Of a stretch of DNA of 24,000 nt, positions 1 through 19,807 are shown piece by piece (the first letter of the stretch is position 1; each line of letters starts with the position of its first letter). A program made the position numbers and the translations under genes. The DNA lies in assembly GCA_948444795.1 (NCBI GenBank), contig CAOJUX010000001.1:57828-81827 (forward strand), read 5' to 3'. Under the pieces are notes generated by a model, which was not told where the DNA came from, ran no database searches, and saw only the letters and a list, made by a program, of their open reading frames with translations. The DNA is from an uncultured Erysipelotrichaceae bacterium. GTDB lineage: Bacteria > Bacillota_I > Bacilli_A > RF39 > UBA660.

Positions 1-205
1 AATCGCCTTTATTACAATAATTTTGAGTATTGACAGCCATATTATTCCACAAAATACATTTAATAAAATCTGCTTCATAAATTCCATCAGAATTTTTAAA
101 TCCCCTTGATACTGCTATTGTAATAGTTGTGACTTTTTTGGCTCCATCTATTTCTACTACTTCTGCTGGTGCGGTTAATCTACCAACTAAAATTACTTGA
201 TTCAT
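1..205 (-). CDS. ssb: single-stranded DNA-binding protein, N-terminal part (gene runs off the window start)
   Basis: Not in the ORF track because it is partial. The reverse-strand ATG is at 205-203, preceded by the RBS AAAGGAGGAA (complement of 211-220). My translation is MNQVILVGRLTAPAEVVEIDGAKKVTTITIAVSRGFKNSDGIYEADFIKCILWNNMAVNTQNYCNKGD. It has the OB-fold SSB N-terminal pattern (VxLxGRLT..PE ... ADFIxCxxW). Confidence 0.75.
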   Translation of the reverse strand, partial: MNQVILVGRLTAPAEVVEIDGAKKVTTITIAVSRGFKNSDGIYEADFIKCILWNNMAVNTQNYCNKGD

Positions 206-313
206 CTTTTTTCCTCCTTTCTTTTTATGCACTTTAGCATACGAGAAATAAGGCGTCAAATGCCTAAAAATAAGATTTTAAAGTCCAAAATATAAATTTT
301 TAAAACAAAAAAT

Positions 314-335
314 ATGAATTGATATATCAATTCAT
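314..335 (-). terminator. perfect 22-bp palindrome ATGAATTGATATATCAATTCAT, likely the sufB terminator (an operator role is not excluded)
   Basis: The arms are 11 bp each. On the minus strand the hairpin is followed by ATTTTTTGTTTT. It lies about 130 nt downstream of the sufB stop. The stem is AT-rich, so confidence is only moderate. Confidence 0.45.
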
Positions 336-463
336 AAAAAGTATTAAATTAAAATAAAAATTTATATAATTTTAATTTTTTTATCTAAAACTTGGTTATT
401 TGGTATATCTATCTTAATAAGACCAATAATCCAATCTTTAATATATTTTAATATAACAACAAA

Positions 464-1756
464 TTAATCTTTTATTAATCTATTAAGTTCAACAGCATAT
501 TCCATTGGCAATTCTTTTTTAAAAACACTTATAAAACCCATTACGATTAGTTCTTTTGCTCTTTCTTCAGTTAAACCTAAATTTTCTAAATAAATTAATT
601 GTTCTTCGTCAATTTTTGAAATACTAGCTTCATGTGAAATTCTTCCACTTCTATTCTCAACTATATTAGTTGGATAGGTATCGCTTTTAGAAGTATCATC
701 TAAAAGAATAGTATCACATTTAATTTCTGCCATTGAATTTTCGGCATTTCTGCTTATTTTTGTAGTTCCTCTATAATTTGCAACTCCACCTTTTTCAGCA
801 ATTGATTTACTAACAATATTACTTTTAGTATTTTTGCCTATATGTATCATTTTAGCACCAGCATCTAAATTTTGACCATTTTTAGCATAAGCAACACTAA
901 TAGAATTTCCTTTTGCATAATCGCCTTTTAATATACAAGAAGGATATTTCATAGTAACTTTACTACCTATATTACCATCTATCCATTCCATTGTTCCATA
1001 ATTATCTACAATTGCTCTTTTTGTTACTAAATTATAAACATCAGTACTCCAATTTTGAATAGTCGAATATCTCATACTAGCATTTTTTCCCACAAATATC
1101 TCTACAACTCCAGCATGAAGTGAATTTTGGGAATAACTTTTAGCTGTGCATCCTTCTATATACTCTAAAGAAGAGTTATCATCTACTATAATAATTGTTC
1201 TTTCAAATTGTCCTAAGCTCTCAGTCTCAATCCGAAAATAGCTTTGAAGAGGCCTGTCTAACTTTGTATTTTTAGGAATATAAATGAATGTTCCCCCACT
1301 CCAAACTGCTCCATTTAAAGCTGTGTATTTATTTTCATAAAATTTAACTAGGCTATTAAAATACTTTTTAAATAAATCAGGGTATTTTCTTAAAGCTTCA
1401 TCTGTTGATAAAAAAATAATATCTTTATTAGTCTTTTTTTTATGATAAATTACTTCGCTTTCAAATTGATTAGAAACACCATCTAAATATTTTTGCTCTG
1501 CATTAATAACTCCAAGATCATTAAAAGATTTTTTTACCTCTTTATCTACTTCATTCCAATCATTTTTATTTTTTTCATAATTATTTTTATAATATAAAAT
1601 ATCCTCAAAGGAAAAATTTAAGTCTGGTCCAAATTTAGGATTTTCTAATTCTAAAAATTTTTCATATGATTTTAATCTAAAATCTAACATCCAACTAGGT
1701 TCTTTTTTATTTTTTGATAAATTAATTATAAAATCTTTTGTTAATTTTTCTTTCAT
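464..1756 (-). CDS. sufB: Fe-S cluster assembly protein SufB/SufD family
   Basis: The 430-aa ORF shows the SufB beta-helix core by eye (GAVWSGGTFIYIPKN, FERTIIIVDDNSSLEYIEGCTA, AGAKMIHIG, SHEASISKIDEEQLIYL...G). An RBS-like sequence lies upstream. Confidence 0.85.
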   Translation of the reverse strand: MKEKLTKDFIINLSKNKKEPSWMLDFRLKSYEKFLELENPKFGPDLNFSFEDILYYKNNYEKNKNDWNEVDKEVKKSFNDLGVINAEQKYLDGVSNQFESEVIYHKKKTNKDIIFLSTDEALRKYPDLFKKYFNSLVKFYENKYTALNGAVWSGGTFIYIPKNTKLDRPLQSYFRIETESLGQFERTIIIVDDNSSLEYIEGCTAKSYSQNSLHAGVVEIFVGKNASMRYSTIQNWSTDVYNLVTKRAIVDNYGTMEWIDGNIGSKVTMKYPSCILKGDYAKGNSISVAYAKNGQNLDAGAKMIHIGKNTKSNIVSKSIAEKGGVANYRGTTKISRNAENSMAEIKCDTILLDDTSKSDTYPTNIVENRSGRISHEASISKIDEEQLIYLENLGLTEERAKELIVMGFISVFKKELPMEYAVELNRLIKD

Positions 1757-1803
1757 AAGACACCACTATTTGTGATTATACTACTTTTTTTTCCACTTAA
1801 CAA

Positions 1804-1832
1804 TTGAAAAATATCTATTAATTTGATATACT
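1804..1832 (+). promoter_or_regulatory. sigma-A type promoter for the 1859-2549 gene pair
   Basis: The -35 TTGAAA is at 1804-1809 and the spacer is 17 nt. The extended -10 TGATATACT has its hexamer at 1827-1832. The RBS AAGGAGG at about 1845 follows. Confidence 0.6.
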
Positions 1833-1858
1833 TTAATAAATAATAAGGAGGATTATAT

Positions 1859-2164
1859 ATGAGCGGCTATAATAATCAAAAAATTAATGCTGCTTATATA
1901 AATGCTTGGCAGCAAAATAATCCTAAATTATTAGAATTAAAAACAGACGGTGAAACTTTAAAATTTAATAATGAAACAATTAATATAAGTAATGTATATA
2001 TGCAAGATTTACTTATAAATCCTAATTTATTTTACAATATAGCATCAATAAGTAGTAAAGTATTATTTGAGATTATAAAAACTCATACTATTGCTTTAAA
2101 AATTAAAGAATTGACAATGCTAGAAAAAGTAAGGAGCTGGAATAAATATGAGCAAAATAAATGA
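1859..2164 (+). CDS. hypothetical protein (101 aa)
   Basis: ORF with a strong RBS (AAGGAGG) and an upstream promoter. I recognise no family. Confidence 0.5.
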   Translation: MSGYNNQKINAAYINAWQQNNPKLLELKTDGETLKFNNETINISNVYMQDLLINPNLFYNIASISSKVLFEIIKTHTIALKIKELTMLEKVRSWNKYEQNK

Positions 2165-2549
2165 TTATTATTGTACAGTAGATGAATATTTTGAATTATC
2201 GAAAAAAATGAAAGAAAATTTAACTCCAATTGAAGAAATTAAAATAATTAATTTTGAAAATTTTATTACCTTAGCTGAACAAAATGAAGATTTTGTGTCT
2301 AATGAAGTTTTGAATATTCTTAATGAATATCGTCAAAAAAGAGCTTTATTAATAAGCCCAGAAAATGAAAAAAATGATAATAAAATTATTCAATTTAAAA
2401 GTTTTCCAAAAACTCCTACTGATAAAGTTGAAGAAAAAGTTTATACCAGAAAATTAAGTAAAACTGGTTATATAAACGCTTCTATTATGTTAATTGTTAT
2501 TTTAAATATAGGATTTATAGTTGCACTAACTATGATATTTATGAGATAA
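2148..2549 (+). CDS. hypothetical tail-anchored membrane protein (133 aa)
   Basis: Its start overlaps the upstream ORF and has an AGGAG RBS. It has a single C-terminal hydrophobic helix (YINASIMLIVILNIGFIVALTMIF). I recognise no family. Confidence 0.5.
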   Translation: MSKINDYYCTVDEYFELSKKMKENLTPIEEIKIINFENFITLAEQNEDFVSNEVLNILNEYRQKRALLISPENEKNDNKIIQFKSFPKTPTDKVEEKVYTRKLSKTGYINASIMLIVILNIGFIVALTMIFMR

Positions 2550-2574
2550 AAAAATCAATATATACAATATGTAC

Positions 2575-2603
2575 CTCATTTTACAAAAAAAAATGAGTTT
2601 TTT
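2575..2603 (+). terminator. intrinsic terminator after 2148-2549
   Basis: The stem CTCATTTT/AAAATGAG (2575-2597) is followed by TTTTTT (2598-2603). The stem is AT-rich. Confidence 0.55.
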
Positions 2604-2663
2604 AATAATAATGTATTTTTTTGATTATATTTTTATTTTTAAAAGTAACAAATTTTAATTATG

Positions 2664-3608
2664 CTAATGTTTACTCTTTCTATAGACTAATATTGAATCA
2701 CTTATTGTACTATCATTAAATTTTATCCCATCAACGCCTAAAAATGAAATCAGTTGTGGATTATATTCTCGTAATATTTCAAAAACTTTTTCTAAATTAT
2801 ATATTGGGTTCCAATCTTGCTGATATGGAGTATTTCTAACAGTTTTATATAAATAACTAATTAAAATTACCCCATTATCATTTAAATTTTTTGACATATT
2901 ATCTATCATTATTTTTAAAAAATGTCTTGAAATATATGTTCCAATATTTGATAACCATATTGAATCAAATTGCCTAGGTATTTTTGTTTTAAATACATCG
3001 CCAGTAATAAATTCTAATTTTGTTTTTTTTATTTTTGATTTTACTTCATCATATAATATATCATTTTGCAAATAAGGATTACATCCTATTATCACATCTA
3101 CTTTATCTTCATCAAAATAAAATAATTCTTTTCGTATATTTAATCCTTTAATGTTCGAAAATAATTCATCCCAAATTAAATAAGACTCATAATCTAATAA
3201 TCTTAAAGTCAATTTAATTCTTTTATAAATATCATTATTAAAAGCTGATTTATTATCTCTAAACGTCTTATATTTATAGCTTAAAAAATTTAAAAATTCA
3301 CTTCTGCTCAATTCTAGCAAGCAACTTATTTTTAAATAAATATAAAATTTTGCATATGGACAAATATCCAAACAAACTATATCTCTACAATCAAATAAGC
3401 TCCCATTTATAATCTGATCACCAGATGATCCAACAGTTAATAATGTTCTATCAGATAAATTAAAATTGTTTATATAACCCGCAATATTTTCTGTCGTAAA
3501 AGGGTATAACAATTGAAAATTTTTGGCGATATCTTCTACAAACATTCCATTGCATTTATTAATCGCGTTCATCACAAGTGTTTCAAAATTCAAATTTTTT
3601 TCATACAT
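2664..3608 (-). CDS. DUF3419/BtaA-like SAM-dependent transferase-fold protein
   Basis: The 314-aa ORF has LLTVGSSGDQIING...VCLDICPYAKFYIYLK, which resembles the SAM-binding and adjacent helices of the DUF3419 (BtaA-like) family. The later FDSIWLSNIG...L..NGVILISY also fits. The call is by eye only. Confidence 0.5.
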   Translation of the reverse strand: MYEKNLNFETLVMNAINKCNGMFVEDIAKNFQLLYPFTTENIAGYINNFNLSDRTLLTVGSSGDQIINGSLFDCRDIVCLDICPYAKFYIYLKISCLLELSRSEFLNFLSYKYKTFRDNKSAFNNDIYKRIKLTLRLLDYESYLIWDELFSNIKGLNIRKELFYFDEDKVDVIIGCNPYLQNDILYDEVKSKIKKTKLEFITGDVFKTKIPRQFDSIWLSNIGTYISRHFLKIMIDNMSKNLNDNGVILISYLYKTVRNTPYQQDWNPIYNLEKVFEILREYNPQLISFLGVDGIKFNDSTISDSILVYRKSKH

Positions 3609-3832
3609 TTGGTATCACCTCAGCATTTAAAATTAATTATTATTATAACATATAATCAAACTATTTTAATATAAATGTTTAATAAAAAATGATAATAATC
3701 TCTGATAAAATTTTAAATTCTATTAAGTAATAAATAGTAGTAAAACACTACTAAAATCTTATATATGCTCTTTAAAATAAAATTATTTAATCAAAATCAC
3801 ATTCTTATTTTAAAATAAAATAGAAATTTATA

Positions 3833-3880
3833 GAAATTAAAAGGACTGTTTTCCTATAATTTTATAGGGTTCAGTCCTTT
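3833..3880 (-). terminator. intrinsic terminator of spoVS
   Basis: The long hairpin pairs AAGGACTG (3841-3848) with CAGTCCTT (3872-3879) and has an inner CCTATAA/TTATAGG stem. On the minus strand it is followed by a U-rich run. It starts 20 nt after the spoVS stop. Confidence 0.7.
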
Positions 3881-3900
3881 AGATAATCATATAAACTTTT

Positions 3901-4161
3901 TTATTTAGCTTCGACAATTAATTTAATTGCTGTTTTTGCTTCTCCATTGATTAAAATATCACTAAATGCTGGTATGACGATTAAATTATCTCCGCTTGGG
4001 GCAACAAATCCTCTTGCTATTGCTATTGCTTTTATCGCTTGATTTAAGCTTCCTGCTCCTATTGTTTGGATTTCTACAGATTTACTTTCACGATATATAT
4101 TAGCAATTGCTCCTGCTACTTTACTAGGGTTAGATTTTGATGATACTTTTAATATTTCCAT
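3901..4161 (-). CDS. spoVS: stage V sporulation protein S
   Basis: The 86-aa product MEILKVSSKSNPSKVAGAIA...IGAGSLNQAIKAIAIARGFVAPSGDNLIVIPAF...TAIKLIV is almost colinear with B. subtilis SpoVS. The RBS is AAAGGAGGA. Confidence 0.95.
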   Translation of the reverse strand: MEILKVSSKSNPSKVAGAIANIYRESKSVEIQTIGAGSLNQAIKAIAIARGFVAPSGDNLIVIPAFSDILINGEAKTAIKLIVEAK

Positions 4162-4214
4162 ATTTCCTCCTTTAAAAATTTATTACATTAAAATATATGA
4201 AGGAAAAATAAATA

Positions 4215-4727
4215 TTATTCTGCTTCTTCAATAAAATTTCTACTTTTATGAGGTTCTTCTCTTAATAAATCTTGATAATCTTGTTGTCTTAATGCCTCAT
4301 ATATCATAATTGCTACAGAGTTTGATAAATTTAAAGCACGTACTTTATCGGTCATCGGTATACGCATACAATTATTAATGAAAGGTTTTAATATTTTGGG
4401 AGGAATCCCTGTACTCTCTTTTCCAAAAATAAAATAAATATTCTCTTCTTTATTGCTATAGTCAAAAGTAGAATGAGGTTTATGTCCATATCTTGTTAGA
4501 AAATAATATGTACCTTTATTTTTCTTGAAAAATTCTTGAATATTTTCATATAATGTATAATTACAATATTTAATATAATTTACTCCACTTCTTTTAATGT
4601 ATTTCTCTTCAAGGGAAAAACCTAATGGTTTTATTAAATGAAGGGGTGTATTAGTAGCAACGCAAGTACGCATTATATTTCCTGTATTTCCAGGAATTTC
4701 TGGTTCAAATAAAACTATATTTAACAT
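4215..4727 (-). CDS. trmL: tRNA (cytidine/uridine-2'-O-)-methyltransferase TrmL (SpoU/TrmH family)
   Basis: The motifs are LFEPEIPGNTGNIMRTC, FIFGKESTGIP, IPM....RALNLSNSVAIMIYEALRQ. These are typical of YibK/TrmL. Confidence 0.9.
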   Translation of the reverse strand: MLNIVLFEPEIPGNTGNIMRTCVATNTPLHLIKPLGFSLEEKYIKRSGVNYIKYCNYTLYENIQEFFKKNKGTYYFLTRYGHKPHSTFDYSNKEENIYFIFGKESTGIPPKILKPFINNCMRIPMTDKVRALNLSNSVAIMIYEALRQQDYQDLLREEPHKSRNFIEEAE

Positions 4728-4728
4728 G

Positions 4729-5262
4729 TTACTTATTTACCTTAAATTCATACATATCAAGCAAATGCTCAAAATCACCAACATTTATCATATTATCATC
4801 AAAACGTGTTACTATACCATCGCTTACTAATTTTCTATTTTTAAAATAAAGAATTGTTGGAACACTTTGTATTTTATGGTCTAAATTAAAAACATTATTT
4901 ATTTTATCTATATAACCATCTTCATTTTTTAAATCAGTTATATCTATATAATAAAAAATATCATTTAATTTATATTTATCAATTATTTTTTTTAAACTTT
5001 TTTCTAAATTATATATTTCTTCATCATTATGAAATCCTATAAAAATAAAATATTCACTAGGAGCTTCAGAAAAAGTATTTTCTATTTCAGCTATATCATT
5101 TACTTCCAAACTAACAGTTTTAGAACTTACTAGGTAACTTTTGCTATATTTTTTATCTTTAAACAAATTTATCCAACTAAATATATAAAATACAAATAAT
5201 ATAGAAAATATACAAATTATAATAGCAATAATATATTTTTTTAAAGAAATATTTTTTTTCAT
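4729..5262 (-). CDS. membrane-anchored thioredoxin-fold protein (no CxxC seen)
   Basis: It has an N-terminal TM helix (YIIAIIICIFSILFVFYIFSWI). The C-terminal VPTILYFKNRKLV is typical of the thioredoxin fold. It is tightly coupled to trmL, with its stop at 4729 and the trmL start at 4727. Confidence 0.45.
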   Translation of the reverse strand: MKKNISLKKYIIAIIICIFSILFVFYIFSWINLFKDKKYSKSYLVSSKTVSLEVNDIAEIENTFSEAPSEYFIFIGFHNDEEIYNLEKSLKKIIDKYKLNDIFYYIDITDLKNEDGYIDKINNVFNLDHKIQSVPTILYFKNRKLVSDGIVTRFDDNMINVGDFEHLLDMYEFKVNK

Positions 5263-5284
5263 ATATATCTACCTTCTTAAAATG

Positions 5285-5313
5285 ATTTTAACAAAAATAA
5301 TAAAAAGTATCAA
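5285..5313 (-). promoter_or_regulatory. sigma-A type promoter for the 5262-4215 operon
   Basis: On the minus strand the -35 TTGATA is at 5313-5308 and the spacer is 17 nt. The extended -10 is TGTTAAAAT, with its hexamer at 5290-5285. Confidence 0.55.
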
Positions 5314-5417
5314 CTTGTGAATTTAAAAAACAGAGATATTTAATTATTTTTCAAATTTAGGTTAATGCCTTTACTAAAAAAGCCTCTGTGAATAATATAA
5401 GCTAGGGGGTTTTATTA

Positions 5418-5897
5418 ATGTTGTTTGAAAATAATAATTATAATTATGACTATGATTATGATTTAGATGTAGATTTAAATTTATTAAATTTATCGGGTTT
5501 TGATCCAAATAATATAAAAAGAATTTATGATAATGCTAAATTATATAGTATAGAAGAAGGATTTTTAAGAGGTAATATGTGGAAAAATGAATATCTTCCA
5601 TATAAAAATTTAAAATATGGTAAATTAGTTCCAACTAATCAAGAAGAAGCATTAAAATTTAAAATAATGGCTCATGAATTTGCTTTAAATGACTTTAATC
5701 TATATTTAGATTTACATCCAGATGATATCGAAATATATCAAAAATTTAAAGAATGCATTGAACATTGTTTAAAATTACAAGATGAATATGCTAAAAAATA
5801 TGGGCCACTTATGTTAGTCCAAGATAAAGGTACTAAATATGATTGGATAAAAAATCCATGGCCTTGGGATAATGATGGAGGTAGTATGTATGTATAA
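5418..5897 (+). CDS. cotJB: spore coat protein, CotJA-like N-terminal half fused to a CotJB domain
   Basis: The N-terminal EEGFLRGNMWKNEYLPY matches the CotJA signature (ALRKGTLWKDLY.FY in B. subtilis). The C-terminal FALNDFNLYLDLHPDD...YAKKYGPL...NPWPW matches CotJB (LTLYLDTHPDD...YGPL...GPWPW). The RBS is AGGGGG. Confidence 0.75.
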   Translation: MLFENNNYNYDYDYDLDVDLNLLNLSGFDPNNIKRIYDNAKLYSIEEGFLRGNMWKNEYLPYKNLKYGKLVPTNQEEALKFKIMAHEFALNDFNLYLDLHPDDIEIYQKFKECIEHCLKLQDEYAKKYGPLMLVQDKGTKYDWIKNPWPWDNDGGSMYV

Positions 5898-6108
5898 ATA
5901 TATGAAAACTTTAACATATCCAGTTAATATAAAAAAGAAAAATTTGAAAATGGCCAAATATATGTATACTCAACTTGGTGGTCCTAATTCAGAACTTTCT
6001 GCAGCTCTTCGTTATTTTAGTCAAAAATTTTCTATGCCTGATGAAAAAGGAAAAGCGCTTTTGAATGATATAGCTACTGAAGAATTGAAACATACAATAT
6101 ATAAATGA
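5890..6108 (+). pseudogene. cotJC: cotJC (Mn-catalase-family spore coat protein), 5' fragment truncated by prophage insertion
   Basis: The start at 5890 (RBS GGAGG, overlapping the cotJB stop) gives MYKYMKTLTYPVNIKK...QLGGPNSELSAALRYFSQKFSMP...LLNDIATEELKH. This is colinear with roughly the first 68 residues of CotJC. After the conserved ...TEELxH it reads TIYK-stop instead of LEM..., whereas full-length CotJC is about 190 aa. Confidence 0.85.
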
Positions 6109-6590
6109 TATCATCCAACCATTATATAATGAATAATTTAAAATGTAGAAAACAAAAATTAAATGGTTTATTTGAATGTAAAAAAACAAATAAATTAATA
6201 AATATAAAAGAATGTAATAATTGTATATATAAAGAATATAAAGATAAAACAAAATGCACAATAAATCAAAAATATTGTGCAAAAATAAAAAATAGAACTT
6301 ATAAACAAACTAAGAAAGAAAAAAATCGTAAGTCTATTTTAACAAATGATTTAAATCATTGCATAATATGTGGTGCAAAAAAGGACCATCTTCACGAAGT
6401 ATTTTCAGGTGCTTATAGAACACATTCAATTAATGAAAACATGGTGTTACCTTTATGTGTTTTTCATCATACTCAAATTCATAAAGATATCGAATTAAGT
6501 TTATTCTGGAAACGACTCTGTCAACAAAAATTTGAAGAATCTCGAACAAGAGACGAATTTATCAAAATTTTTGGAAGAAGTTATTTATGA
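6105..6590 (+). CDS. Cys-rich zinc-ribbon plus HNH/His-Me-finger-like protein (NinG/Rap- or YbcO-like, tentative)
   Basis: The C-terminal half reads CIICGAKKDHLHEVFSGAYRTHSINENMVLPLCVFHHTQIH, giving the pattern CxxCG...H...R...N...C..HH..H. The N-terminal part has six spaced Cys residues and a K-rich linker. There is no obvious SD, and the ATG at 6105 overlaps the cotJC' TGA. An alternative start at 6129 is possible. Confidence 0.4.
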   Translation: MISSNHYIMNNLKCRKQKLNGLFECKKTNKLINIKECNNCIYKEYKDKTKCTINQKYCAKIKNRTYKQTKKEKNRKSILTNDLNHCIICGAKKDHLHEVFSGAYRTHSINENMVLPLCVFHHTQIHKDIELSLFWKRLCQQKFEESRTRDEFIKIFGRSYL

Positions 6591-6730
6591 AAGAAATATG
6601 GAAAGATATAAAAGGATATGAAGAATTGTATCAAGTTAGCAATCTTGGAACTGTTAAGGTCTTAACTTTTAGAAATAATAAATACACAATAAAAAAGGAA
6701 AGAAGGAATTATAATGAACAAAGAAAATAA
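6587..6730 (+). pseudogene. NUMOD4-motif fragment (N-terminal remnant of an HNH homing endonuclease), 47 codons
   Basis: Not in the ORF track. The ATG at 6587 overlaps the TGA of the previous ORF. MKEIWKDIKGYEELYQVSNLGTVKV is the classic NUMOD4 signature (WK.I.GYEG.YQVSN.G.V.S), but no HNH or DNA-binding part follows. Confidence 0.55.
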
Positions 6731-7562
6731 AAGTTATTTTAATAAACTTAAAGAAAGATTAGAAAATACTGATTGGGAACAATTGGCAAAAGATCGATAT
6801 CAAGAAGAAATAAATAATCCTAATAATTATTCATTTTGGTATCCTAAGGTAAAAGATTGTGGTATAAAAATGGTTAATTCAAGAATTTACAAGTTTTCAT
6901 ACGAAGCTTGGAATAAATTTAGGGAAATAGATGGCAATAAGCAGGCTTGGATTGATTATGTTAATTATATACAATCGTTAATAGAAAAAGATAAAACTTT
7001 AGAACATAAAAAAATATACAATATAAAAAATGGTTGTTTCAGTAACAAATTTAATGCAGTAGATTGTAATGTTAAATATAAAGATATTGCTAAAAAGTTT
7101 GTAGATATTCAATACACAAGTTACCTTTATGGGGCAGGTGGAACTACTGAATTAATTATACGTGATTATATAGATTACGATTATACTAAAACACCAACTA
7201 TTTATAATGGATTGCCATTAAGAACCGAATTTAGAGTATTTGTAGATTTTGATAGCGAAAAAGTTTTATATATAGTTAATTATTGGGATTACAATTATTG
7301 TTATCCTAGTATATATAATGCCACTGATAAAATTGTATTTAAACATATGAGAAACAAAATTCAAAAGGATTATGAAAAATATAAAGACTATGTAGTAAAC
7401 CAAGTTAAAGAAAAATTATTAAATTACAACAAAAGCAATAACAATGGACTTACAGGAAAATGGTCAATTGATATTATGAAAGAAAAAAATGACTTTTATT
7501 TAATAGATATGGCTATAGCTTATCAATCTGCTTATTGGGATTCTAGCAAAATTAAAAAATGA
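6714..7562 (+). CDS. ATP-grasp fold protein, CDC123/R2K-clade-like
   Basis: The RBS is GAAGGAA. The string of motifs resembles the R2K ATP-grasp clade. The motifs are IKNGCFSNKF (like SPKD), ELIIRDYIDY, LPLRTEFRVFVDFDSEKVLYIVNYWD (like EFRcFV...is.Rd) and WSIDIMKEKNDFYLIDMAIAYQSAYW (like DvY....v.LiDfNPf). The call is by eye only. Confidence 0.5.
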   Translation: MNKENKSYFNKLKERLENTDWEQLAKDRYQEEINNPNNYSFWYPKVKDCGIKMVNSRIYKFSYEAWNKFREIDGNKQAWIDYVNYIQSLIEKDKTLEHKKIYNIKNGCFSNKFNAVDCNVKYKDIAKKFVDIQYTSYLYGAGGTTELIIRDYIDYDYTKTPTIYNGLPLRTEFRVFVDFDSEKVLYIVNYWDYNYCYPSIYNATDKIVFKHMRNKIQKDYEKYKDYVVNQVKEKLLNYNKSNNNGLTGKWSIDIMKEKNDFYLIDMAIAYQSAYWDSSKIKK

Positions 7563-7614
7563 TATGTTTTGTCGATTTTAACATATTTCTTTCATTTTTG
7601 AATATAATAAAAAA

Positions 7615-7644
7615 GATCCTTGGTTACCCGTGTGGGCCAAGGAC
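7615..7644. repeat. IR-L, the left copy of a 30-bp GC-rich hairpin element, also a likely bidirectional terminator
   Basis: The sequence is GATCCTTGGTTACCCGTGTGGGCCAAGGAC. It matches the reverse complement of 8616-8645 at 27/30 positions, with a perfect 20-bp core at 7620-7639. It folds locally as CCTTGG-(TTA)-CCC-GTGT-GGG-CCAAGG, with T-rich runs on both sides. It ends 3 nt from the Abi stop codon. Confidence 0.85.
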
Positions 7645-7647
7645 ATT

Positions 7648-8592
7648 TTATTTTATGCTAATCCAATTAATAGGCAATCCCATACATTCTTTAACGCAAG
7701 AAATATCTATTGTTTTTAATTTCTGAGATAAACTTCTTAATCTTCCTTCTATTTTATTACAAACGTTATTAAAATCTTCTTGAGGCAGTAATATTTTAAA
7801 ACAAATAATTAGCGAAAATATATCATTTTTGCCTTGAATATATCTTGAATTTAAAATTGAAATATTAAGTTGTTTATGATATATGGTATCTGGAATAGCC
7901 TGATTGTTTTTTGCATTGAATAATCTTTCGTCATGAGCGCATAGATTACGATAAAAAGCCATATTTTTAATATATTGATCTAAATCATAATCTTGTATAT
8001 CCCAATGTTTTGCAACTTCTTGTCTAATTTTTTGTTTCATTAGAGAATAAAATTGACTTAAGCGCCCAAGAGTTAAGCAATTAACTAATACCCACATGGG
8101 AACAAATCCATAATTTAAAATATAATGATTTACATAATCTTTTTTAGAAATATTGTAAGAGATATCACTTTGTAGATTGCTTAATAATAATTGAATTTTT
8201 TCTATTCTTTCTTCGTATTTTTGTAGAGTACATCCACTACCCTTTAAAGTTTCAAAATTATCTAATTTCAAATAATTATCATTTCCATACTTTTCAGAAA
8301 AATTGTAAGCAATTAGTGACCTCAAAATGTTTTCTACTTTTAATATAGGTTTAAAGAATATATTTTTCAAAATTCTATCAAAATCATACAAAGCATATAT
8401 TTCTTCGAATGTTGTTCCTTCTAGAAAAACATCTTTACTGTTTGGCTTCATAAATAAATCTTTATAACCATTAATAATATTATAATAATTTTCTTCTGCT
8501 AACTTTTCTTTGGCAAATTTTTCATCAGATATTATTAAACCTCTATTTCTTAAAATTGCAATTTGTTCATCATATGTTTTAAATTCTTTCAT
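7648..8592 (-). CDS. Abi_2 family abortive-infection protein (AbiD/AbiF-like)
   Basis: The start is taken at 8592 (RBS AAAGGAG, product MKEFKTYDEQIAILRNRGLIISDE...EENYYNIINGY). RNLCAHDERLFN matches the conserved RN..aH..r.wn motif of Abi_2. The 16-codon upstream extension in the ORF track runs through the IR and is rejected. Confidence 0.85.
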   Translation of the reverse strand: MKEFKTYDEQIAILRNRGLIISDEKFAKEKLAEENYYNIINGYKDLFMKPNSKDVFLEGTTFEEIYALYDFDRILKNIFFKPILKVENILRSLIAYNFSEKYGNDNYLKLDNFETLKGSGCTLQKYEERIEKIQLLLSNLQSDISYNISKKDYVNHYILNYGFVPMWVLVNCLTLGRLSQFYSLMKQKIRQEVAKHWDIQDYDLDQYIKNMAFYRNLCAHDERLFNAKNNQAIPDTIYHKQLNISILNSRYIQGKNDIFSLIICFKILLPQEDFNNVCNKIEGRLRSLSQKLKTIDISCVKECMGLPINWISIK

Positions 8593-8615
8593 AAACAGCT
8601 CCTTTAATAAAAAAA

Positions 8616-8645
8616 GTCTCTGGCCCACACGGGTAACCAAAGATC
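8616..8645. repeat. IR-R, the right (inverted) copy of the 30-bp GC-rich hairpin element, in the Abi 5' leader
   Basis: The sequence is GTCTCTGGCCCACACGGGTAACCAAAGATC, with a perfect core at 8621-8640. In the minus-strand RNA it forms the same hairpin, followed by U7 (complement of 8609-8615) and then immediately by the Abi RBS. Confidence 0.85.
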
Positions 8646-8657
8646 AATCACAATTAA

Positions 8658-8685
8658 ATTATATCAATAAATAGAAAAAATGCAA
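8658..8685 (-). promoter_or_regulatory. sigma-A type promoter upstream of IR-R and the Abi gene
   Basis: On the minus strand the -35 TTGCAT is at 8685-8680 and the spacer is 16 nt. The extended -10 TGATATAAT has its hexamer at 8663-8658. The predicted transcription start at about 8650 lies just 5' of the IR-R hairpin. Confidence 0.5.
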
Positions 8686-8795
8686 CAAAAAATTGTGTTT
8701 TTTTACTCTTTTTTTATTTATTTTATAACTTTTAACATATTTTAAACCATTTTATACGTTTTTAAGACATTTCGAATTTTATATAATAATAACAT

Positions 8796-8930
8796 TTACT
8801 TTTTTATATTATTTAACGATCTGTAATGTCTACGCATACTTTTTAAAACTCTAAGTTTAGCACATCCTGGATATACTCTACTATAATATTTTATTTCTCT
8901 TTCTAAAATTTTTAATTTTCTTTCTATCAA
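8796..8930 (-). CDS. possible 44-codon basic small ORF (TTG start)
   Basis: Not in the ORF track. The product is LIERKLKILEREIKYYSRVYPGCAKLRVLKSMRRHYRSLNNIKK. It is preceded by AGGGTGA and a plausible promoter (TCGACA, 16 nt, TATGAT, roughly 8945-8975 on the minus strand). There is no family match, and it could be noise in AT-rich DNA. Confidence 0.25.
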   Translation of the reverse strand: MIERKLKILEREIKYYSRVYPGCAKLRVLKSMRRHYRSLNNIKK

Positions 8931-9001
8931 CCTAATCACCCTAATATAAAATATATCATATTTTTAGTGCTAAACTTGTCGAAATATGTAATTTATTGCA
9001 T

Positions 9002-9040
9002 TAAAAAAAGAGGTAGCCTCTAAATTAGAAGTTACCTCTA
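9002..9040 (-). terminator. intrinsic terminator after the 9042-9425 ORF
   Basis: On the minus strand AGAGG-CTA-CCTCT (9021-9009) is followed by TTTTTT. An alternative is the 7-bp stem AGAGGTA/TACCTCT (9039-9033 with 9015-9009). The hairpin starts right after the stop codon. Confidence 0.55.
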
Positions 9041-9041
9041 T

Positions 9042-9425
9042 TTATTCAATATTATAATGTATAGCTTCGTCTTTTTTCTTTCTGTTAGAAATTTTTATTG
9101 GTTTAACTGGATACCAACTTTTAACTTTTAAAACCTTACCTGAATTTATTCTTATAGCAACACATATATCATCATTTATTTTTTTATAATATTCTAAACC
9201 TTTTGTTGTTTTATTATAAAAAACATAATCAGGTCTTTTAATTATATTATTAAGCTCATCATAAATCTTGTCAATTTCTTCTTTTGTGCCAAAATCTTGC
9301 AAATGTGAGTCTATAACATGTTGCTTTCTATCATCGTAAACTAATATTGGTTTATTTTTATGTTCACTTATATCCCAATATTCTGCTATATCTTCTTCTA
9401 AAATTCCAACATATTTATAACTCAT
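9042..9425 (-). CDS. small putative nuclease/toxin, PBECR-like (phage Barnase-EndoU-ColicinE5/D-RelE-like), tentative
   Basis: The 127-aa ORF has the RBS GGAAGGA. The layout ILVYDDRKQHVIDSHLQDF...IYDELNNIIKRPDYVFYNK...ICVAIRIN...KVKSWYPV resembles free-standing PBECR-type proteins (..tdeR..Hi...H......yi..ii..PDyi..d......v.vkl......s.y.i). The call is from memory of the family pattern only. Confidence 0.4.
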   Translation of the reverse strand: MSYKYVGILEEDIAEYWDISEHKNKPILVYDDRKQHVIDSHLQDFGTKEEIDKIYDELNNIIKRPDYVFYNKTTKGLEYYKKINDDICVAIRINSGKVLKVKSWYPVKPIKISNRKKKDEAIHYNIE

Positions 9426-9440
9426 AGCTTAATCCTTCCA

Positions 9441-9474
9441 ATTAAAATAAACAAACCCGTCATTTCTGACGGGC
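9441..9474 (-). terminator. intrinsic terminator located inside the leader of the 9042-9425 ORF
   Basis: On the minus strand the stem CCCGTCA, a GAAA loop and TGACGGG (9473-9456) are followed by TTTGTTTATTTT. The U tract ends about 2 nt before the RBS of the downstream ORF. Confidence 0.75.
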
Positions 9475-9661
9475 TATTAAGCAATAAGACCGGGCATCAC
9501 TTCCGGTATCTCATCAGAAACCCTCGCGAGTAACCTACACTTAAGACTTACGTCCGCGATAGACGATGACATTCTATCCTCAAAATTGCTTACTCAAACA
9601 ATAACACATGTATTACACATATATTGTCGTTTTTTATTAGATATTCGAAATTTCTTTCGAC
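9475..9661 (-). ncRNA. candidate structured leader or small RNA of unknown class (GC-rich block 9481-9570)
   Basis: By hand count the block 9481-9570 has 45 G/C out of 90, against 21/90 in the adjacent 9601-9690. No ORF is present. Hairpin A in plus coordinates is CGCG(9525-9528)/CGCG(9555-9558) plus GTAA(9530-9533)/TTAC(9548-9551). Hairpin B is ACCGG(9489-9493)/CCGGT(9503-9507). The block lies between a predicted promoter and the terminator. Confidence 0.5.
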
Positions 9662-9767: not shown

Positions 9768-10472
9768 TTATTTATACCAGCTTTTTTTGTAAGGGAAATA
9801 TCTAAGTTGATTGTTTACATATCCCTTTAACCAAGTATATTCATTTGCAGTTCCGACGTTCATAGAAACGTTTTTTATAATTGTACCAGTTTTATAAAGA
9901 ACTTTAGATTTATTAAAACCTATGCCTCCAATTCTTGCATAAACGCTTGTTGTTAGTGTTAAATTTTTTGATAAAGTATTTGTATTAGTTGTAGTCTTTT
10001 TGATACCAAAATAAGTATAATATGAGCTACAACATGATTTAGACATTGATTTACTCTCATCGCCAAACCATTTACGTGGTTTAACATCTATATGAGTATA
10101 ATTACTACTACCTCCACATTTATATCCGATACCACATTTATGTCCTAGATCTTCTAAAGCAAGTGCTACTTGTTTACTTGGTATTATTTTACCATTTTTA
10201 TCAGTGAATTTTATATCACAAGCATAACCTTGATGAGTATTACTAATAGTTTTTGATTTAGTAACCGTTCTTTCGTGTGTAGGGCAACGATATCCAGATG
10301 AAATATCTCCTCTTACTGCGCATATTTTTTTCATAACTTTTTCAAGTAGTGGTGGTAATGTATCTGCTATCACTATTTTATGATTTTTACCACATTTGCA
10401 CTTCCATTCATAAACGCAAAAATGTTCTGATAAACGACTTCTATCATTGTATTTGTACTCTATTAATTTCAT
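9768..10472 (-). CDS. endolysin with an N-terminal Peptidase_M15 (zinc D-Ala-D-Ala carboxypeptidase-like) domain and a C-terminal SH3-like wall-binding region
   Basis: LSEHFCVYEWKCKCG...SSGYRCPTHERTV...HQGYACDI...THIDV fits the M15 H-x-D...H zinc site. It is the last gene of the late operon, directly after a holin. Confidence 0.75.
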   Translation of the reverse strand: MKLIEYKYNDRSRLSEHFCVYEWKCKCGKNHKIVIADTLPPLLEKVMKKICAVRGDISSGYRCPTHERTVTKSKTISNTHQGYACDIKFTDKNGKIIPSKQVALALEDLGHKCGIGYKCGGSSNYTHIDVKPRKWFGDESKSMSKSCCSSYYTYFGIKKTTTNTNTLSKNLTLTTSVYARIGGIGFNKSKVLYKTGTIIKNVSMNVGTANEYTWLKGYVNNQLRYFPYKKSWYK

Positions 10473-10474
10473 TA

Positions 10475-10672
10475 TTATTTACCTCTTTTCTTAGAAACTT
10501 TTTGGCATAATAAGTAAGAACTTATAAAACCGTTAATAACTGCTATTATTTCTATTATTTGGTGTGCGTATGGTATACTTATACCATCTACTGCATTAAT
10601 ACCAGTAATTAAAAAAGCTATTGCACTTAATACATTTAATATATATTTTGATATTTTTTTGATTTTTTCCAT
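10475..10672 (-). CDS. holin (two TM helices, basic C-terminus)
   Basis: The 65-aa product has two hydrophobic helices (ILNVLSAIAFLITGINAV and IIEIIAVINGFISSYLLC) and a KVSKKRGK tail. It lies immediately upstream of the endolysin. Confidence 0.6.
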   Translation of the reverse strand: MEKIKKISKYILNVLSAIAFLITGINAVDGISIPYAHQIIEIIAVINGFISSYLLCQKVSKKRGK

Positions 10673-11031
10673 TATATTTTACCTTCTTTCTTTAAATTCT
10701 CCCATTTATCGTGGATATAGCTATTTCCACCAAGCCCGCAATAAGCATCATATAATTCATGTGCATTTATTTTTTGCTCTGTAGAAATATCTTCTTTTTC
10801 TGCTAAACTCATAAAATTAACTAAATCAGTTTTTAATCTATCTAATTTGTCGTTTTTATGATTTTCTTTAATATCTTCTATATCAGTTTTAATTGGTTTG
10901 ATTTCATTCGCAATAACTTTGCTGACTGTTTTTTTTAGCATCATCGCTATAGTTGATACTGATGATATTAAAGCAATTAAAAAGCCAAGTGCTGTTGCAA
11001 TCTGACCTAATGTTATATTTTCCATTTTCAA
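10672..11031 (-). CDS. membrane-anchored lysis-cassette protein (function unknown, possible holin partner)
   Basis: The 119-aa product has an N-terminal TM helix (IATALGFLIALISSVSTIAMML) followed by a charged helical region. Its stop overlaps the holin start. Confidence 0.35.
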   Translation of the reverse strand: MKMENITLGQIATALGFLIALISSVSTIAMMLKKTVSKVIANEIKPIKTDIEDIKENHKNDKLDRLKTDLVNFMSLAEKEDISTEQKINAHELYDAYCGLGGNSYIHDKWENLKKEGKI

Positions 11032-11053: not shown

Positions 11054-11368
11054 CTATTCTGCTGTATCTAATAATTTTTGTAAATCATTTATTTGCTCTT
11101 GTAATTCTTCATTGCTTACTATTTCTTTAGGTTCTACATAATTTTCGTTTACATAAAATCCTTTTTGAACAGTGTAACAATATTTATTAATTGTAATATC
11201 ATCTGTGATATTTTCTACTTCATATACTTTCTTTACTAAATATTTAGCAATAGCAAGTGTATCATTATCTACTAATACATTTCCATTTTTTTGATAAGCG
11301 ATTGTATCACTTATGTGTATTATTACATTTTCTTGGTCTGTTATTATATATTTTTTCAACTTGATCAC
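11054..11368 (-). CDS. hypothetical phage protein (in the XkdW position)
   Basis: The 104-aa ORF lies between the fibre/RBP genes and the lysis genes, as xkdW/xkdX do in PBSX. The call rests on position only. Confidence 0.3.
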   Translation of the reverse strand: MIKLKKYIITDQENVIIHISDTIAYQKNGNVLVDNDTLAIAKYLVKKVYEVENITDDITINKYCYTVQKGFYVNENYVEPKEIVSNEELQEQINDLQKLLDTAE

Positions 11369-11378
11369 TTCTTTCTTT

Positions 11379-12671
11379 TTAATTTTCTATATTAGGTACA
11401 TAGACCTTTATTTTTTGATTTTTATTAGCTTTTGTTTTGGCAATGCCCAAAAAGTCATTAAGCTTTGGATTATATAATTCAGCTTTATTAGTTTTAACAA
11501 TAAATGCTCTTATTTGATAGCCATTTGATATAGTACTATATGTAACTAATATTTCTTTATCGTTCATTTCGGCTAAATAAATATTATCATTATTAACAGA
11601 TAAACTAGAAGAACTTTTTAAATATTGCGGTTTTATATAATCATTAATTATTGAAATTGGTCTAAAATGAATAGCCGTTCCCCCATTTTTTGTAGCAACA
11701 GCAAATATTCTATTATCTTTTAATTTTATCAATTTTTGAGAAATGCCTCTTAAATTATCGTTGCAACATAATAATTGTCTTTCTGAAAAAGTGAGTTCAT
11801 CTTGATTTATATTGCAAATAACACTAACTAAACGTGCATTTGCGCCATATTCACCAAAAGAAATTAATATCTTATTTTCTTCTAGCAAAATAGCTTTAAA
11901 AGTACCTTTAGTAGCATTATTACCTGTAACTGCAAAAGAAAAAGTAGTTCCAAAATTTATAGCATTATCTTTAAACGTACATAGCGATGCATCACCGTCA
12001 AACAACAATAATGTTTTATTATTTGCAATTTTAATTGAAGTTGCAGAGCTGTCACCAGTCTGTTTTGTATTTGAATTATTTTCAGATGAAATTACTGTTA
12101 TTTCTTTATTGTCTATTTCACATAATTTGCCGCTAAAATTAACTCGATAATTAACGTTACATGTATGAAAAATAAAAAATTTATTTTCATTTAATATATT
12201 AATAGATAATAAACTAATAGCATTGCCTAATGTTGTTACTACGCCTGTTTCAATTGAATTGCTATTAATACCGCATACTATAGCGCTCATTGTTGCATTA
12301 TAAACTGATACTACGATAAATTTATTTTGGTCTATCATTTCTACGCACCAATCAACAGAACTTGCTGTTACAGAAACTTTTAAAGAAACTTCTTCATCAT
12401 TCACAGTTATCACACCATTTGCTAAAGTACAAATTCTTGCGTATAAGATGTTGTTTTTAGGATAAGTTAAAATAAAGCGTTCTGAATCTACTTTAGTCAT
12501 ACAGTGATTACAATAGCTTCCACCTGCAGAAAAAGATGCTAACAAAGTTTCTTCGCTTATTTCTTCATTTAATCCGACAAATTCACCCGATTTTATATTT
12601 TCGTTAGTGATGTATTCTTCTACTATTCCTTTTGATACACTTGATGATCCTATATTAGTCTTAATTTGCAT
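11379..12671 (-). CDS. putative receptor-binding tail protein with seven ~50-aa internal repeats (beta-propeller-like)
   Basis: The start is set at 12671 (RBS GAGGAGGTGG, product MQIKTNIG...). The upstream extension in the ORF track has no RBS. See the findings for the repeat pattern. Confidence 0.5.
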   Translation of the reverse strand: MQIKTNIGSSSVSKGIVEEYITNENIKSGEFVGLNEEISEETLLASFSAGGSYCNHCMTKVDSERFILTYPKNNILYARICTLANGVITVNDEEVSLKVSVTASSVDWCVEMIDQNKFIVVSVYNATMSAIVCGINSNSIETGVVTTLGNAISLLSINILNENKFFIFHTCNVNYRVNFSGKLCEIDNKEITVISSENNSNTKQTGDSSATSIKIANNKTLLLFDGDASLCTFKDNAINFGTTFSFAVTGNNATKGTFKAILLEENKILISFGEYGANARLVSVICNINQDELTFSERQLLCCNDNLRGISQKLIKLKDNRIFAVATKNGGTAIHFRPISIINDYIKPQYLKSSSSLSVNNDNIYLAEMNDKEILVTYSTISNGYQIRAFIVKTNKAELYNPKLNDFLGIAKTKANKNQKIKVYVPNIEN

Positions 12672-13431
12672 TATCCACCTCCTCAGAAATGGATGTTTCT
12701 GGTACAGTTTCTTCATATATAATAGTAACATCTACATCTTCAGTAATTTCATCTTCTGTAGTTAATATAAAATAGCCATTGTAACTATCGCCATCTAAAT
12801 CACTTATTTTTTCTCTGTTTACTTTATCCGCTAATACTTGTATAAGAGTATTACTTGTTATATTTACTTTATCTATTCTATAATCATATAAATTTGTTTC
12901 TTCATTTAGATTCCAATTTTCTTTTGATAAAGTGAGTTTATATACTTTTGGTCTATCATCTATAATTTTACTTTCTACTTGACTTAAAGTCGGATGAGCT
13001 GATGGGTTTATTTCTAAATTAACCTGTGATGCGTTATCGACTTTCACATTTATTGTGTAATCTAAACTCATTGTATTATGACCATTATATTCAAACATAC
13101 AGTCTGGGCTTTCAAGCTCGACACTTACAGCTAATAAAAACTCTAGTCCATTTTCTTCTACATAAATTCCTAAAGCTTTAATGTAGTATCTTTCTTCTAA
13201 TTCTGCATTATCTATACTTGCAGTAATTTGAACTGTGGAATTATCTATTTTTGAAATCGAAGAAATAAGAGAAGTTTGTTTTATATTATTTATAGAAATT
13301 AATTTTTCTAAATTTGTAGTTCCATAATCAAAATCAGATAGTACTATTTTTGTAAAAGTTATAGTGCTTTCTTCTGAAAGCAGTTTACTTATTACTTCTT
13401 TACCTTTTTCGGTAATAATTAATTTCTGCAT
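12661..13431 (-). CDS. tail fibre protein (N-terminal DUF3751/P2 gpH-like baseplate-attachment domain)
   Basis: MQKLIITEKGKEVISKLL....ITFTKIVLSDFDYG...L..I.Q......I.........V.I.A.I.N......YYIKALGIYVEENG.EFLLAV fits the conserved phage tail-fibre N-terminus. It follows the baseplate J and I homologs. Confidence 0.6.
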   Translation of the reverse strand: MQKLIITEKGKEVISKLLSEESTITFTKIVLSDFDYGTTNLEKLISINNIKQTSLISSISKIDNSTVQITASIDNAELEERYYIKALGIYVEENGLEFLLAVSVELESPDCMFEYNGHNTMSLDYTINVKVDNASQVNLEINPSAHPTLSQVESKIIDDRPKVYKLTLSKENWNLNEETNLYDYRIDKVNITSNTLIQVLADKVNREKISDLDGDSYNGYFILTTEDEITEDVDVTIIYEETVPETSISEEVDNAN

Positions 13432-13446
13432 AAAAATCAGTCCTTT

Positions 13447-13977
13447 CTAATTTATAATAATATGTTTTCTTTTAACTATAGAGCCACCAAAAAACACATT
13501 ATTTTCAATATTTCTATTTAATGAATTATTTAAAAGTACCAGCAAATTAGCCGGCACAAACGATTCCAACATTTCTAATAATATTGGAATTTGTTTAATA
13601 TCTTCAAAATGAGTTACAAGTAGTAATTTATAATCATTAGTTAACTTAACCGAATAATTATTTGCTCCACAAATAGCATTTAATCTATTAATAAGAGTTT
13701 TATGAGTGTAAGGTAGTGACTCTGTCCACTTTGAAAGAACTCTTGAAATTCTAGCATTTAAAGTATCATTAGAGGATGATGTTATATTTAATATTTTTTC
13801 ATATCTTTTTATACCGTCTTCATCACAATATTTTATATATAAATTATTAAATACTTTTTCACTTTTATCAGAAGCAATTTGAAATTCTGGATTTTCAGAA
13901 CTCATTATATTACTAATTTCCTTATAATCTTGAATGTATTTAGGCAAGTGTTCTTTTAGGTTAATAGTTCTTATCAT
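13447..13977 (-). CDS. baseplate/tail protein, XkdU / P2 gpI-like (DUF2313)
   Basis: The N-terminus LKEHLPKYIQDYKEI is typical of XkdU/YmfQ. It lies directly downstream of the Baseplate_J gene. Confidence 0.6.
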   Translation of the reverse strand: MIRTINLKEHLPKYIQDYKEISNIMSSENPEFQIASDKSEKVFNNLYIKYCDEDGIKRYEKILNITSSSNDTLNARISRVLSKWTESLPYTHKTLINRLNAICGANNYSVKLTNDYKLLLVTHFEDIKQIPILLEMLESFVPANLLVLLNNSLNRNIENNVFFGGSIVKRKHIIIN

Positions 13978-15436: not shown

Positions 15437-15438
15437 TA

Positions 15439-17613: not shown

Positions 17614-17614
17614 A

Positions 17615-19609: not shown

Positions 19610-19618
19610 TTAAAATCA

Positions 19619-19807
19619 CTATCCTTTGCTAGCTCTTTCAGCTTCTTTTTTAGCTTTTTTTTGATCTTCCATTTTTATATCTATTGACGCTATTATGAAA
19701 GCCTTTTCTCTATCATCTAATTCAATAAAATCGCTTGGCCTCATATTAAATTTGTGGAGGCAATAGTGAGCGTAATTCGCTTCAGCATCCTCCTTAATTA
19801 GTTTTTT
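19619..19807 (-). CDS. -1 frame extension of the chaperone (the GT-type fusion product)
   Basis: Not in the ORF track. The -1 frame is open from 19810 to the TAG at 19621-19619. It encodes ...LIKEDAEANYAHYCLHKFNMRPSDFIELDDREKAFIIASIDIKMEDQKKAKKEAERASKG. It is entered at the slippery heptamer and ends 10 nt before the TMP start. Confidence 0.6.
   Translation of the reverse strand, partial: KKLIKEDAEANYAHYCLHKFNMRPSDFIELDDREKAFIIASIDIKMEDQKKAKKEAERASKG

Follow-up and report, generated by a model that had tools for sequence, protein, structure and literature searches.

The sporulation gene cotJC of an uncultured gut bacterium is split by a prophage at a codon used by many prophages

Introduction

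Several mother-cell genes of spore-forming bacteria are split by elements that carry a serine recombinase, namely sigK by skin, spsM by SPbeta, spoVFB by vfbin, spoVR by vrin, gerE by gin and yabG by yin (PMC4191935, PMC5595907, PMC10747680). A preprint on relatives of SPbeta (bioRxiv 10.1101/2021.11.22.469490), citing Abe et al. 2013, lists the gene cotJC as a frequent target of phages or transposons, and a skin-like element is reported to interrupt cotJC of Laceyella sacchari (Galperin et al. 2022, bioRxiv 10.1101/2022.02.25.481979). The present study concerns a stretch of 24,000 nucleotides from an uncultured Erysipelotrichaceae bacterium (contig CAOJUX010000001.1, positions 57,828 to 81,827), hereafter called the window, in which cotJC is cut by a prophage. 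The gene is cut exactly at a site that is used by many unrelated prophages, and it is intact in related genomes.

In Bacillus subtilis, SPbeta, which has SprA as integrase and SprB as directionality factor, is likewise a seemingly complete temperate phage that splits a mother-cell gene for the spore envelope, namely spsM. The two elements differ in target gene, host clade and phage type, the window element having a contractile, PBSX-like tail module. The window element resembles skin in sigK (SpoIVCA) in having PBSX-like tail genes (Pfam YQBQ and XkdN families). However, the skin element, itself defective and a remnant, controls an essential sigma factor, whereas the visible part of the window element looks intact and splits the gene of a probably dispensable coat protein. 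The vfbin, vrin, gin and yin elements are also serine-recombinase mobile elements in mother-cell sporulation genes, but they occupy other genes and are mostly defective or not phage-derived. The cases of Abe et al. 2013 and of L. sacchari concern the same target gene, split by a phage-like or skin-like element in other hosts; the accessible parts of those reports do not give a crossover point, two recombinase families, two orientations or a split frequency. An earlier reading of the window, made without database searches and called here the sequence-only reading, stated that it was aware of no characterised cotJC-splitting element. This view needs amending, because interruptions of cotJC had already been noted in these two cases; no experimental study of such an element was found in the literature searched.

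Results

Interruption of cotJC in the window

The window, with a G+C content of ~25%, comes from an uncultured low-GC member of the gut Bacillota. The open reading frame (ORF) at 5890-6108 on the plus strand matches positions 1-69 of the 284 positions of Pfam Mn_catalase (E 5.8e-18), and its C-terminus reads ...NDIATEELKH-TIYK-stop. Its start overlaps the stop codon of cotJB (5418-5897, plus strand; Pfam CotJB, E 1.6e-21), which is the first visible gene of the cotJ operon. The host-derived part of this ORF is a 5' fragment of cotJC that consists of codons 1-64 and the GA of codon 65 (5890-6083). This fragment and the N-terminal part of the intact CotJC of L256, a related genome, share 85% identity (comparator loci, contigs and genomes are designated by L numbers, and comparator proteins by P numbers). 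The cotJ operon of B. subtilis is a mother-cell sigma-E operon. By analogy, cotJC of the window would be a mother-cell sporulation gene, and the insertion at codon 65 lies within its coding sequence. The remaining 17.9 kb of the window belong to a prophage that continues past the window end. Neither a coding region for the C-terminal part of CotJC nor a recombinase gene was detected in the 24-kb window by tblastn (E<=10).

The sequence-only reading had placed a prophage inside cotJC, and the comparisons described below bear this out, because the junction is a site used by many prophages, relatives have an intact cotJC in the same neighbourhood, and the 3' fragments of comparators adjoin large serine recombinases (LSRs). 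It had also described the 17.9 kb downstream as phage genes up to the window end, which the Pfam and PHROGs matches confirm.

Position of the crossover

The dinucleotide GA at 6082-6083 (plus strand), within the Glu-65 codon of the EExxH motif, is the crossover dinucleotide, and hence the attL core, that we infer from the comparison of junctions. It is followed by the phage-derived half-site of attP, the P' arm (6084-6128, plus strand; ATTGAAACATACAAT...), as judged from homologous arms beside other junctions. This half-site supplies L-K-H and then T-I-Y-K and a stop codon (6085-6108). The L-K-H codons, TTG-AAA-CAT (6085-6093), are phage DNA that mimics cotJC, because residue 67 is G or S and never K in 25/25 intact relatives, and because the same motif, of the TTGAAACAT type, abuts the junction in other phages that are joined to the opposite half of cotJC. 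The ORF had been read as CotJC through TEELKH. This assignment holds for the first 65 residues, but not for L-K-H. A breakpoint within a few bp of 6094 had been proposed accordingly; comparison with related junctions places the crossover ~11 bp upstream of this position.

When 3' junctions are aligned, the sequence that is identical between lysogens starts at GAR-CTT-GGN-CAT (Glu-65-Leu-Gly-His), and the base directly before the G of GAR differs from the host sequence. The 5' junctions (3/3: the window, L081 and L166) retain the host sequence through ...ACT-GAA-GA, i.e. ...ACTGAAGA. The next dinucleotide is excluded as the crossover, because a host with a GAG codon receives phages whose attP has GAA there. 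These limits from both sides, together with the GAG host and the GAA attP, confine the exchange to GA at 6082-6083. The crossover is thus 2 bp in length, with no target duplication and no duplicated core seen, as deduced across elements rather than from both ends of the window element.

Arms homologous to that of the window are present in L081 (ATTGATACAA), L251 (ATTAAGACAT), L091 (GTTGAAACAT) and the intact attP of L340 (ATTAGAACAT). The window sequence at 6084-6093, ATTGAAACAT, is of the same kind as the right arm of L340 (ATTAGAACAT...) and the arms of L081, L251 and L091, and 8 of its first 10 bases agree with the P' arm of L340. In IMG/VR and the JGI metagenomes, no match was obtained with a degenerate pattern for the phage-side att arm.

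Recurrent use of codon 65

When the 68 N-terminal residues of CotJC were used as a query, 116 clusters were obtained, all of 53-117 amino acids. In ~88 of these 116 short clusters the sequence diverges directly after ...TEE, and more than 30 different foreign tails follow, including LIQ-stop, LTQ-stop, SVC-stop and SEHKRL; 20 others are ordinary partial genes. The protein search apparently listed only targets of up to ~1.75 times the query length (at most 117 amino acids for a query of 68, 203 for 116 and 140 for 80). The possibility that the exclusively short matches mean that most CotJC proteins are truncated was therefore rejected: the apparent length limit of the search accounts for them, and the list carries no frequency information. 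The proteins matched by the C-terminal part of CotJC fell into two size classes: those of ~115 amino acids start from the first Met after the codon-65 site, and those of ~138 amino acids start from Met-49. Among the best 120 short C-terminal matches, ~66 start at the first in-frame Met after the codon-65 site.

An identical host 3' fragment, P0348, is located directly downstream of a 722-residue LSR in L250, of a 602-residue LSR in L252 and of a phage lysis end in L251. The lysis end of L251 consists of an M15 endolysin gene, a PBECR3 gene and a phrog_7566 gene, like that of the window, and the endolysin of the window is 67% identical to the endolysin of this prophage, which occupies the same cotJC site. 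In L253-255, which represent a second host, the same two recombinases are found beside the 3' fragment. The host-identical sequence begins at the same GA in the P0348 loci and in L253-255. Some 5' fragments (P0017, P0120 and P0126) read into the antisense of the 3' end of a recombinase gene. Two orientations occur. In orientation A the phage lysis end is attached to the 5' fragment, with the recombinase towards the 3' fragment (the window, L081, L166, L250, L252-255 and L312), and orientation B is the reverse (L091, L251 and L276).

In the species genome L279 (positions 1-5500) the sequence before the 3' cotJC fragment nearly repeats that of the host but lacks one base (AATGATATTGTTCTGAAGAA). 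The LSR gene is on the opposite strand at a distance of 3 kb, and the genes around it are not of phage type (LytTR-like regulator, XRE repressor). This element may be a non-phage element that uses the codon-65 site.

Recombinases and attachment sites

The proteins encoded beside the 3' cotJC fragments carry Resolvase and Recombinase domains. LSRs are seen at the same cotJC site as that of the window in L250, L252-255 and L312, and wherever an integrase is visible at a 3' junction of cotJC it is an LSR. The LSR gene of the comparators is located immediately upstream of the 3' fragment, as has been described for spoIVCA and spoIIIC in skin. The recombinases belong to two families. In the ~720-residue family (L250:7802-9970; L340:3001-5163) the Resolvase and Recombinase domains are separated by a LysM domain (Pfam, E 1e-8 to 1e-10), an unusual insert for a DNA recombinase, and there is a weak match to a zinc ribbon. 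The half-sites of the 602-residue family differ: they are of the TCTGTACGTTAACGAT type and form the P arm of L252 and the P' arm of L166. This family uses the same GA. No close homologue of the comparator LSRs was found among sequenced or characterised phages (46% identity at most); Listeria phage A118 is among their distant relatives.

The IMG/VR contig L340 carries an unintegrated phage, in which the LSR gene is followed by the attP, GACTGATAACGAAATTGTAGCAAT-TC-ATTAGAACATTTATGTTATCAGTT, and then by an endolysin gene on the opposite strand. The 20-nt arms of this attP form an inverted repeat that is 80% complementary around the central TC. The endolysins of L340 and of L081, where the gene is next to the split cotJC, are 45% identical. 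In the attP of L340, TC takes the place of the GA found at the junction of L250, and elements of the GA type and the TC type are integrated in opposite orientations. In this recombinase family the central dinucleotide alone sets polarity, and the difference between L340 and L250 fits this rule. The recombinase of the window element is probably a member of the ~720-residue family with the LysM insert, to judge from the resemblance of its P' arm to that of L340.

Intact and split cotJC in related genomes

The scan of the genome collection listed 80 related species representatives, and the counts given here are among those listed. These genomes are gut metagenome-assembled genomes (MAGs) labelled as uncultured Bacilli, Tenericutes, Mycoplasma or Erysipelotrichaceae. 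In the comparison with relatives that the sequence-only reading had proposed, cotJC is found intact in the same neighbourhood, including in the closest listed representative, L256 (mouse gut MAG MGBC121705). In L256 the genes for SufB, SpoVS and TrmL are on one strand and cotJB-cotJC is divergent, as in the window, and the three proteins are 74%, 92% and 81% identical to those of the window respectively. The cotJC gene is intact in ~71 of the 80 genomes, split at codon 65 in three (L276, L279 and L312), split at codons 28-31 in two (L265 and L308) and starts at a contig edge in four. It is therefore split in at least 5/80 (~6%).

The second insertion hotspot is located at a GG motif in codons 28-31 (L169:1-600; L086:9900-10100; L093:8545-10100; 3' junctions of L265 and L308). 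A 479-residue LSR is encoded directly upstream of the 3' fragment in L093 (8545-10100) and in ~10 similar IMG/VR contigs. Among the best 120 short C-terminal CotJC proteins, ~50 start at Met-49, as expected for this site.

The arrangement of the locus varies between species, as seen when loci L256-L335 are compared with window positions 4215-6108. The cotJB-cotJC pair is divergent from the gene for a 177-residue protein and from TrmL in the window, L256, L264 and L287, and it is co-directional, downstream of these genes, in L268, L294, L298, L323 and L326. Intact cotJC is found in both arrangements. A phage-mediated inversion as the origin of the opposite cotJ orientation relative to TrmL in L250-252 was rejected, because species with an intact cotJC show either arrangement.

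The host flank of the window contains, all on the minus strand, the genes for SufB (464-1756; NCBIfam SufB, E 1.4e-178), SpoVS (3901-4161), the TrmL/SpoU methylase (4215-4727) and the 177-residue membrane protein (4729-5262). The CotJB ORF encodes 159 amino acids, of which the Pfam CotJB domain spans residues 81-151 only, with the N-terminal 80 residues outside it. Upstream of cotJB there is no evident separate cotJA.

Gene content of the prophage

All but the first three genes of the prophage part are on the minus strand, and the long phage ORFs of the 17.9 kb are all open. The three plus-strand genes encode a phrog_7566 protein with an HNH-like zinc finger (6105-6590; phrog_7566, E 1.8e-18), a NUMOD4 fragment (6587-6730) and a phrog_12834 protein (6714-7562). 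They are followed by the genes for an Abi_2 abortive-infection protein (7648-8640) and a PBECR3 nuclease (9042-9425), and by a lysis module that consists of an M15 peptidase endolysin (9768-10472; Pfam Peptidase_M15_3 below the cut-off, phrog_894 endolysin E 2e-15) and a holin-like membrane protein (10672-11031). The tail fibre and baseplate genes (Mu Gp48-like, Baseplate_J, sheath initiator, DUF2577, YQBQ-like and LysM; Pfam) occupy 11054-17649. The genes for the tape measure, XkdN-like tail chaperone, tube, sheath, tail terminator, HK97 gp10-like and neck proteins (Pfam) occupy 17615-23998. The tail set is PBSX/skin-like and has the order Phage_sheath_1, DUF2001, Phage_TAC_5 (XkdN-like), TMP_3, LysM, YQBQ, DUF2577, Sheath_initiator, Baseplate_J and Mu Gp48 in Pfam terms. 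The PBSX/skin-like structural module recognised in the sequence-only reading is upheld by the Pfam matches to the XkdN-like tail chaperone, YQBQ-like, DUF2577, Baseplate_J and LysM families. The window prophage has no match in the collection of phage records (megablast of 5300-9500), and it is absent from IMG/VR, where the best tail-sheath match is 67% identical.

The phrog_7566 gene is the first phage gene after the att site. Its likely start is the ATG at 6129. The protein family has invariant C-x2-C ... H-E ... C-x3-H residues, and its profile weakly matches the HNH domain of IscB (E 0.03). The gene is the first one after attP in phages with a serine integrase (L205) or a tyrosine integrase (L170), and in IMG/VR prophages it often lies no more than a few hundred bases from the end of the contig (homologues in L170, L205, L169, L091 and L086). 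A role for the protein as a cotJC-specific recombination factor was rejected, because the gene likewise comes first after attP in phages that have other targets and unrelated serine or tyrosine integrases, and because most homologues are encoded away from cotJC. The truncated cotJC and the phrog_7566 ORF share an ATGA, in which stop and start overlap, and there is no terminator-like site on the plus strand between them. Transcription from the cotJ promoter could enter the phage at this gene, to judge from this arrangement, but little weight is placed on such read-through because the opposite insertion orientation is equally common.

The 47-residue NUMOD4 ORF (6587-6730), between the phrog_7566 and phrog_12834 genes, is an isolated motif that looks like the remnant of a gene for a homing-type HNH endonuclease; the related phage L170 lacks such a fragment at this position. 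The Abi_2 and PBECR3 (barnase/EndoU/RelE-like) genes are located between the att site and the lysis genes (7648-9425) and are probably defence or toxin cargo of the prophage. In L251, L170 and L086 a PBECR3 gene occupies the corresponding position.

Discussion

We consider that the window most probably contains the attL of a contractile-tailed temperate phage that was integrated into codon 65 of cotJC by an LSR without target duplication, and that the lysogen cannot make full-length CotJC; the probability of this reading is roughly 0.75. In the mechanism suggested by the comparators, a phage LSR would have exchanged strands at the GA of the Glu-65 codon, leaving no target duplication. The far end, ~15-25 kb beyond the window, is predicted to contain the lysogeny module, an outward-facing LSR gene for ~600-720 residues, a P arm resembling ...GATAACNNAATNGTNNNAAT, the GA and codons 65 to ~185 of cotJC, which would resume as R-CTT-GGN-CAT. 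The 3' half of the gene is thus predicted for this element, and comparators keep 3' halves that start at the same nucleotide. Excision would yield an attP that consists of the P arm, GA and ATTGAAACATAC..., and a rebuilt attB that consists of ...ACTGAAGA and the host continuation. The lysogen chromosome would encode no full-length CotJC, and the gene would be rebuilt only by precise excision by the LSR together with a directionality factor. Several points weigh against this reading. The 3' cotJC fragment, the recombinase and the attR of this prophage lie outside the window and are predicted only, and the assignment to an LSR family rests on half-site similarity of ~10-20 bp in AT-rich DNA. Furthermore, L170, the closest relative of the phage end in the window, has a tyrosine integrase and a tRNA-like attP. 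Integration modules are therefore swapped among these phages.

The tyrosine integrase of L170 is encoded immediately upstream of its phrog_7566 gene, and this phage is the one most similar to the window at this end, so that a tyrosine integrase instead of an LSR has to be considered for the window element as well. In addition, 'DIATEE' is kept in the 3' fragment P0149, a hint that the shared core of some elements may be longer. Nevertheless, this alternative is improbable, because the tRNA-like attP of L170 is unrelated to cotJC, because LSRs are the only integrases visible at 3' junctions of cotJC, and because the ~45 bp of phage DNA between the junction and the first phage gene fit a compact LSR site better than they fit arm-binding repeats. 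It is highly improbable that the locus has decayed, such that a later deletion removed the 3' half of cotJC, the integrase or both, and the 5' fragment is a dead pseudogene. The position of the far end outside the window would allow such a deletion, and the NUMOD4 fragment near the junction shows some local decay, but the long phage ORFs are all open and the junction keeps the exact recombination geometry of the comparators that retain a 3' fragment.

The integration of the phage by an LSR at codon 65 is compatible with different fates of cotJC. In one of these, which falls a little short of even odds in our judgement, lysogeny is ordinary: cotJC is a conserved but dispensable landing site, spores are formed without full-length CotJC, and the prophage is excised only on induction. 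The use of the site by several phages with at least two LSR families, and the second hotspot at codons 28-31, are typical of the choice of a conserved sequence as attB, and the intact appearance of the visible phage genes suggests an active phage rather than a domesticated remnant. According to the Clostridioides difficile literature, cotCB and cotD mutants lose some catalase activity and have no significant coat defect, and B. subtilis mutants without CotJC show no apparent defect. Ordinary lysogeny leaves unexplained, however, why mother-cell sporulation genes are over-represented among the targets of LSR prophages in spore-formers, as reported in the cited literature.

The element may instead be truly of the skin/SPbeta type. 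Sporulation control of its recombinase or directionality factor would then bring about its excision in the terminal mother cell, so that cotJC is rebuilt for the coat while the forespore keeps the prophage. The window element is a reasonable candidate for such a developmental element, yet we regard this possibility as rather unlikely on present evidence. Phage-derived elements in sigK, spsM, spoVFB, spoVR and gerE are excised in this manner (PMC4191935, PMC5595907, PMC10747680). Use of the cotJC site is repeated and precise, and excision would thus restore the reading frame, and the ATGA overlap without a terminator-like site would permit mother-cell transcription to read into the element. The membership of cotJ in a mother-cell sigma-E operon in B. 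subtilis also favours this possibility. On the other hand, no recombinase, directionality factor or sporulation promoter is seen within the part of the element that lies in the window. Both orientations occur (the window and L250 versus L091, L251 and L276), which argues against a fixed design around the cotJ promoter, and selection for reconstitution may be weak, because loss of CotJC-type proteins seems to cause little or no spore defect, to judge from the literature. A broader scheme, in which cotJC is a shared landing pad in uncultured gut spore-formers, is speculative and quite unlikely. In this scheme unrelated LSR lineages would have converged on one dinucleotide in the conserved Glu codon of EExxH and on the GG hotspot, the phages would act as sporulation-timed switches of the coat Mn-catalase, and the cotJ promoter would drive phrog_7566 and the next gene in the mother cell.

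Two further systems are comparable in part. The phage A118 family in comK of Listeria likewise consists of LSR phages that use a conserved coding sequence as attB, but the A118-type switch is tied to infection and not to sporulation. The C. difficile phage phi027 is located directly beside cotG, which encodes a CotJC homologue, and the papers describe adjacency rather than a split gene. What appears to be new is the exact crossover, the convergence of two families of recombinase on one dinucleotide, the existence of two polarity variants, the hotspot at codons 28-31 and the split frequency of ~6% in the related species genomes.

A split cotJC is easily miscalled in annotation as a pseudogene or as two small proteins. 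Even if excision is not developmental, the cotJC site is a well-defined natural LSR attB, with the crossover mapped to GA and at least two recombinase families that use it, and the natural GA and TC variants of the central dinucleotide, which integrate in opposite orientations, are useful for studies of LSR specificity. If excision is developmental, cotJC would join sigK, spsM, spoVFB, spoVR, gerE and yabG as a phage-gated sporulation gene, and it would be a case in abundant uncultured gut spore-formers that involves an apparently active phage rather than a remnant.

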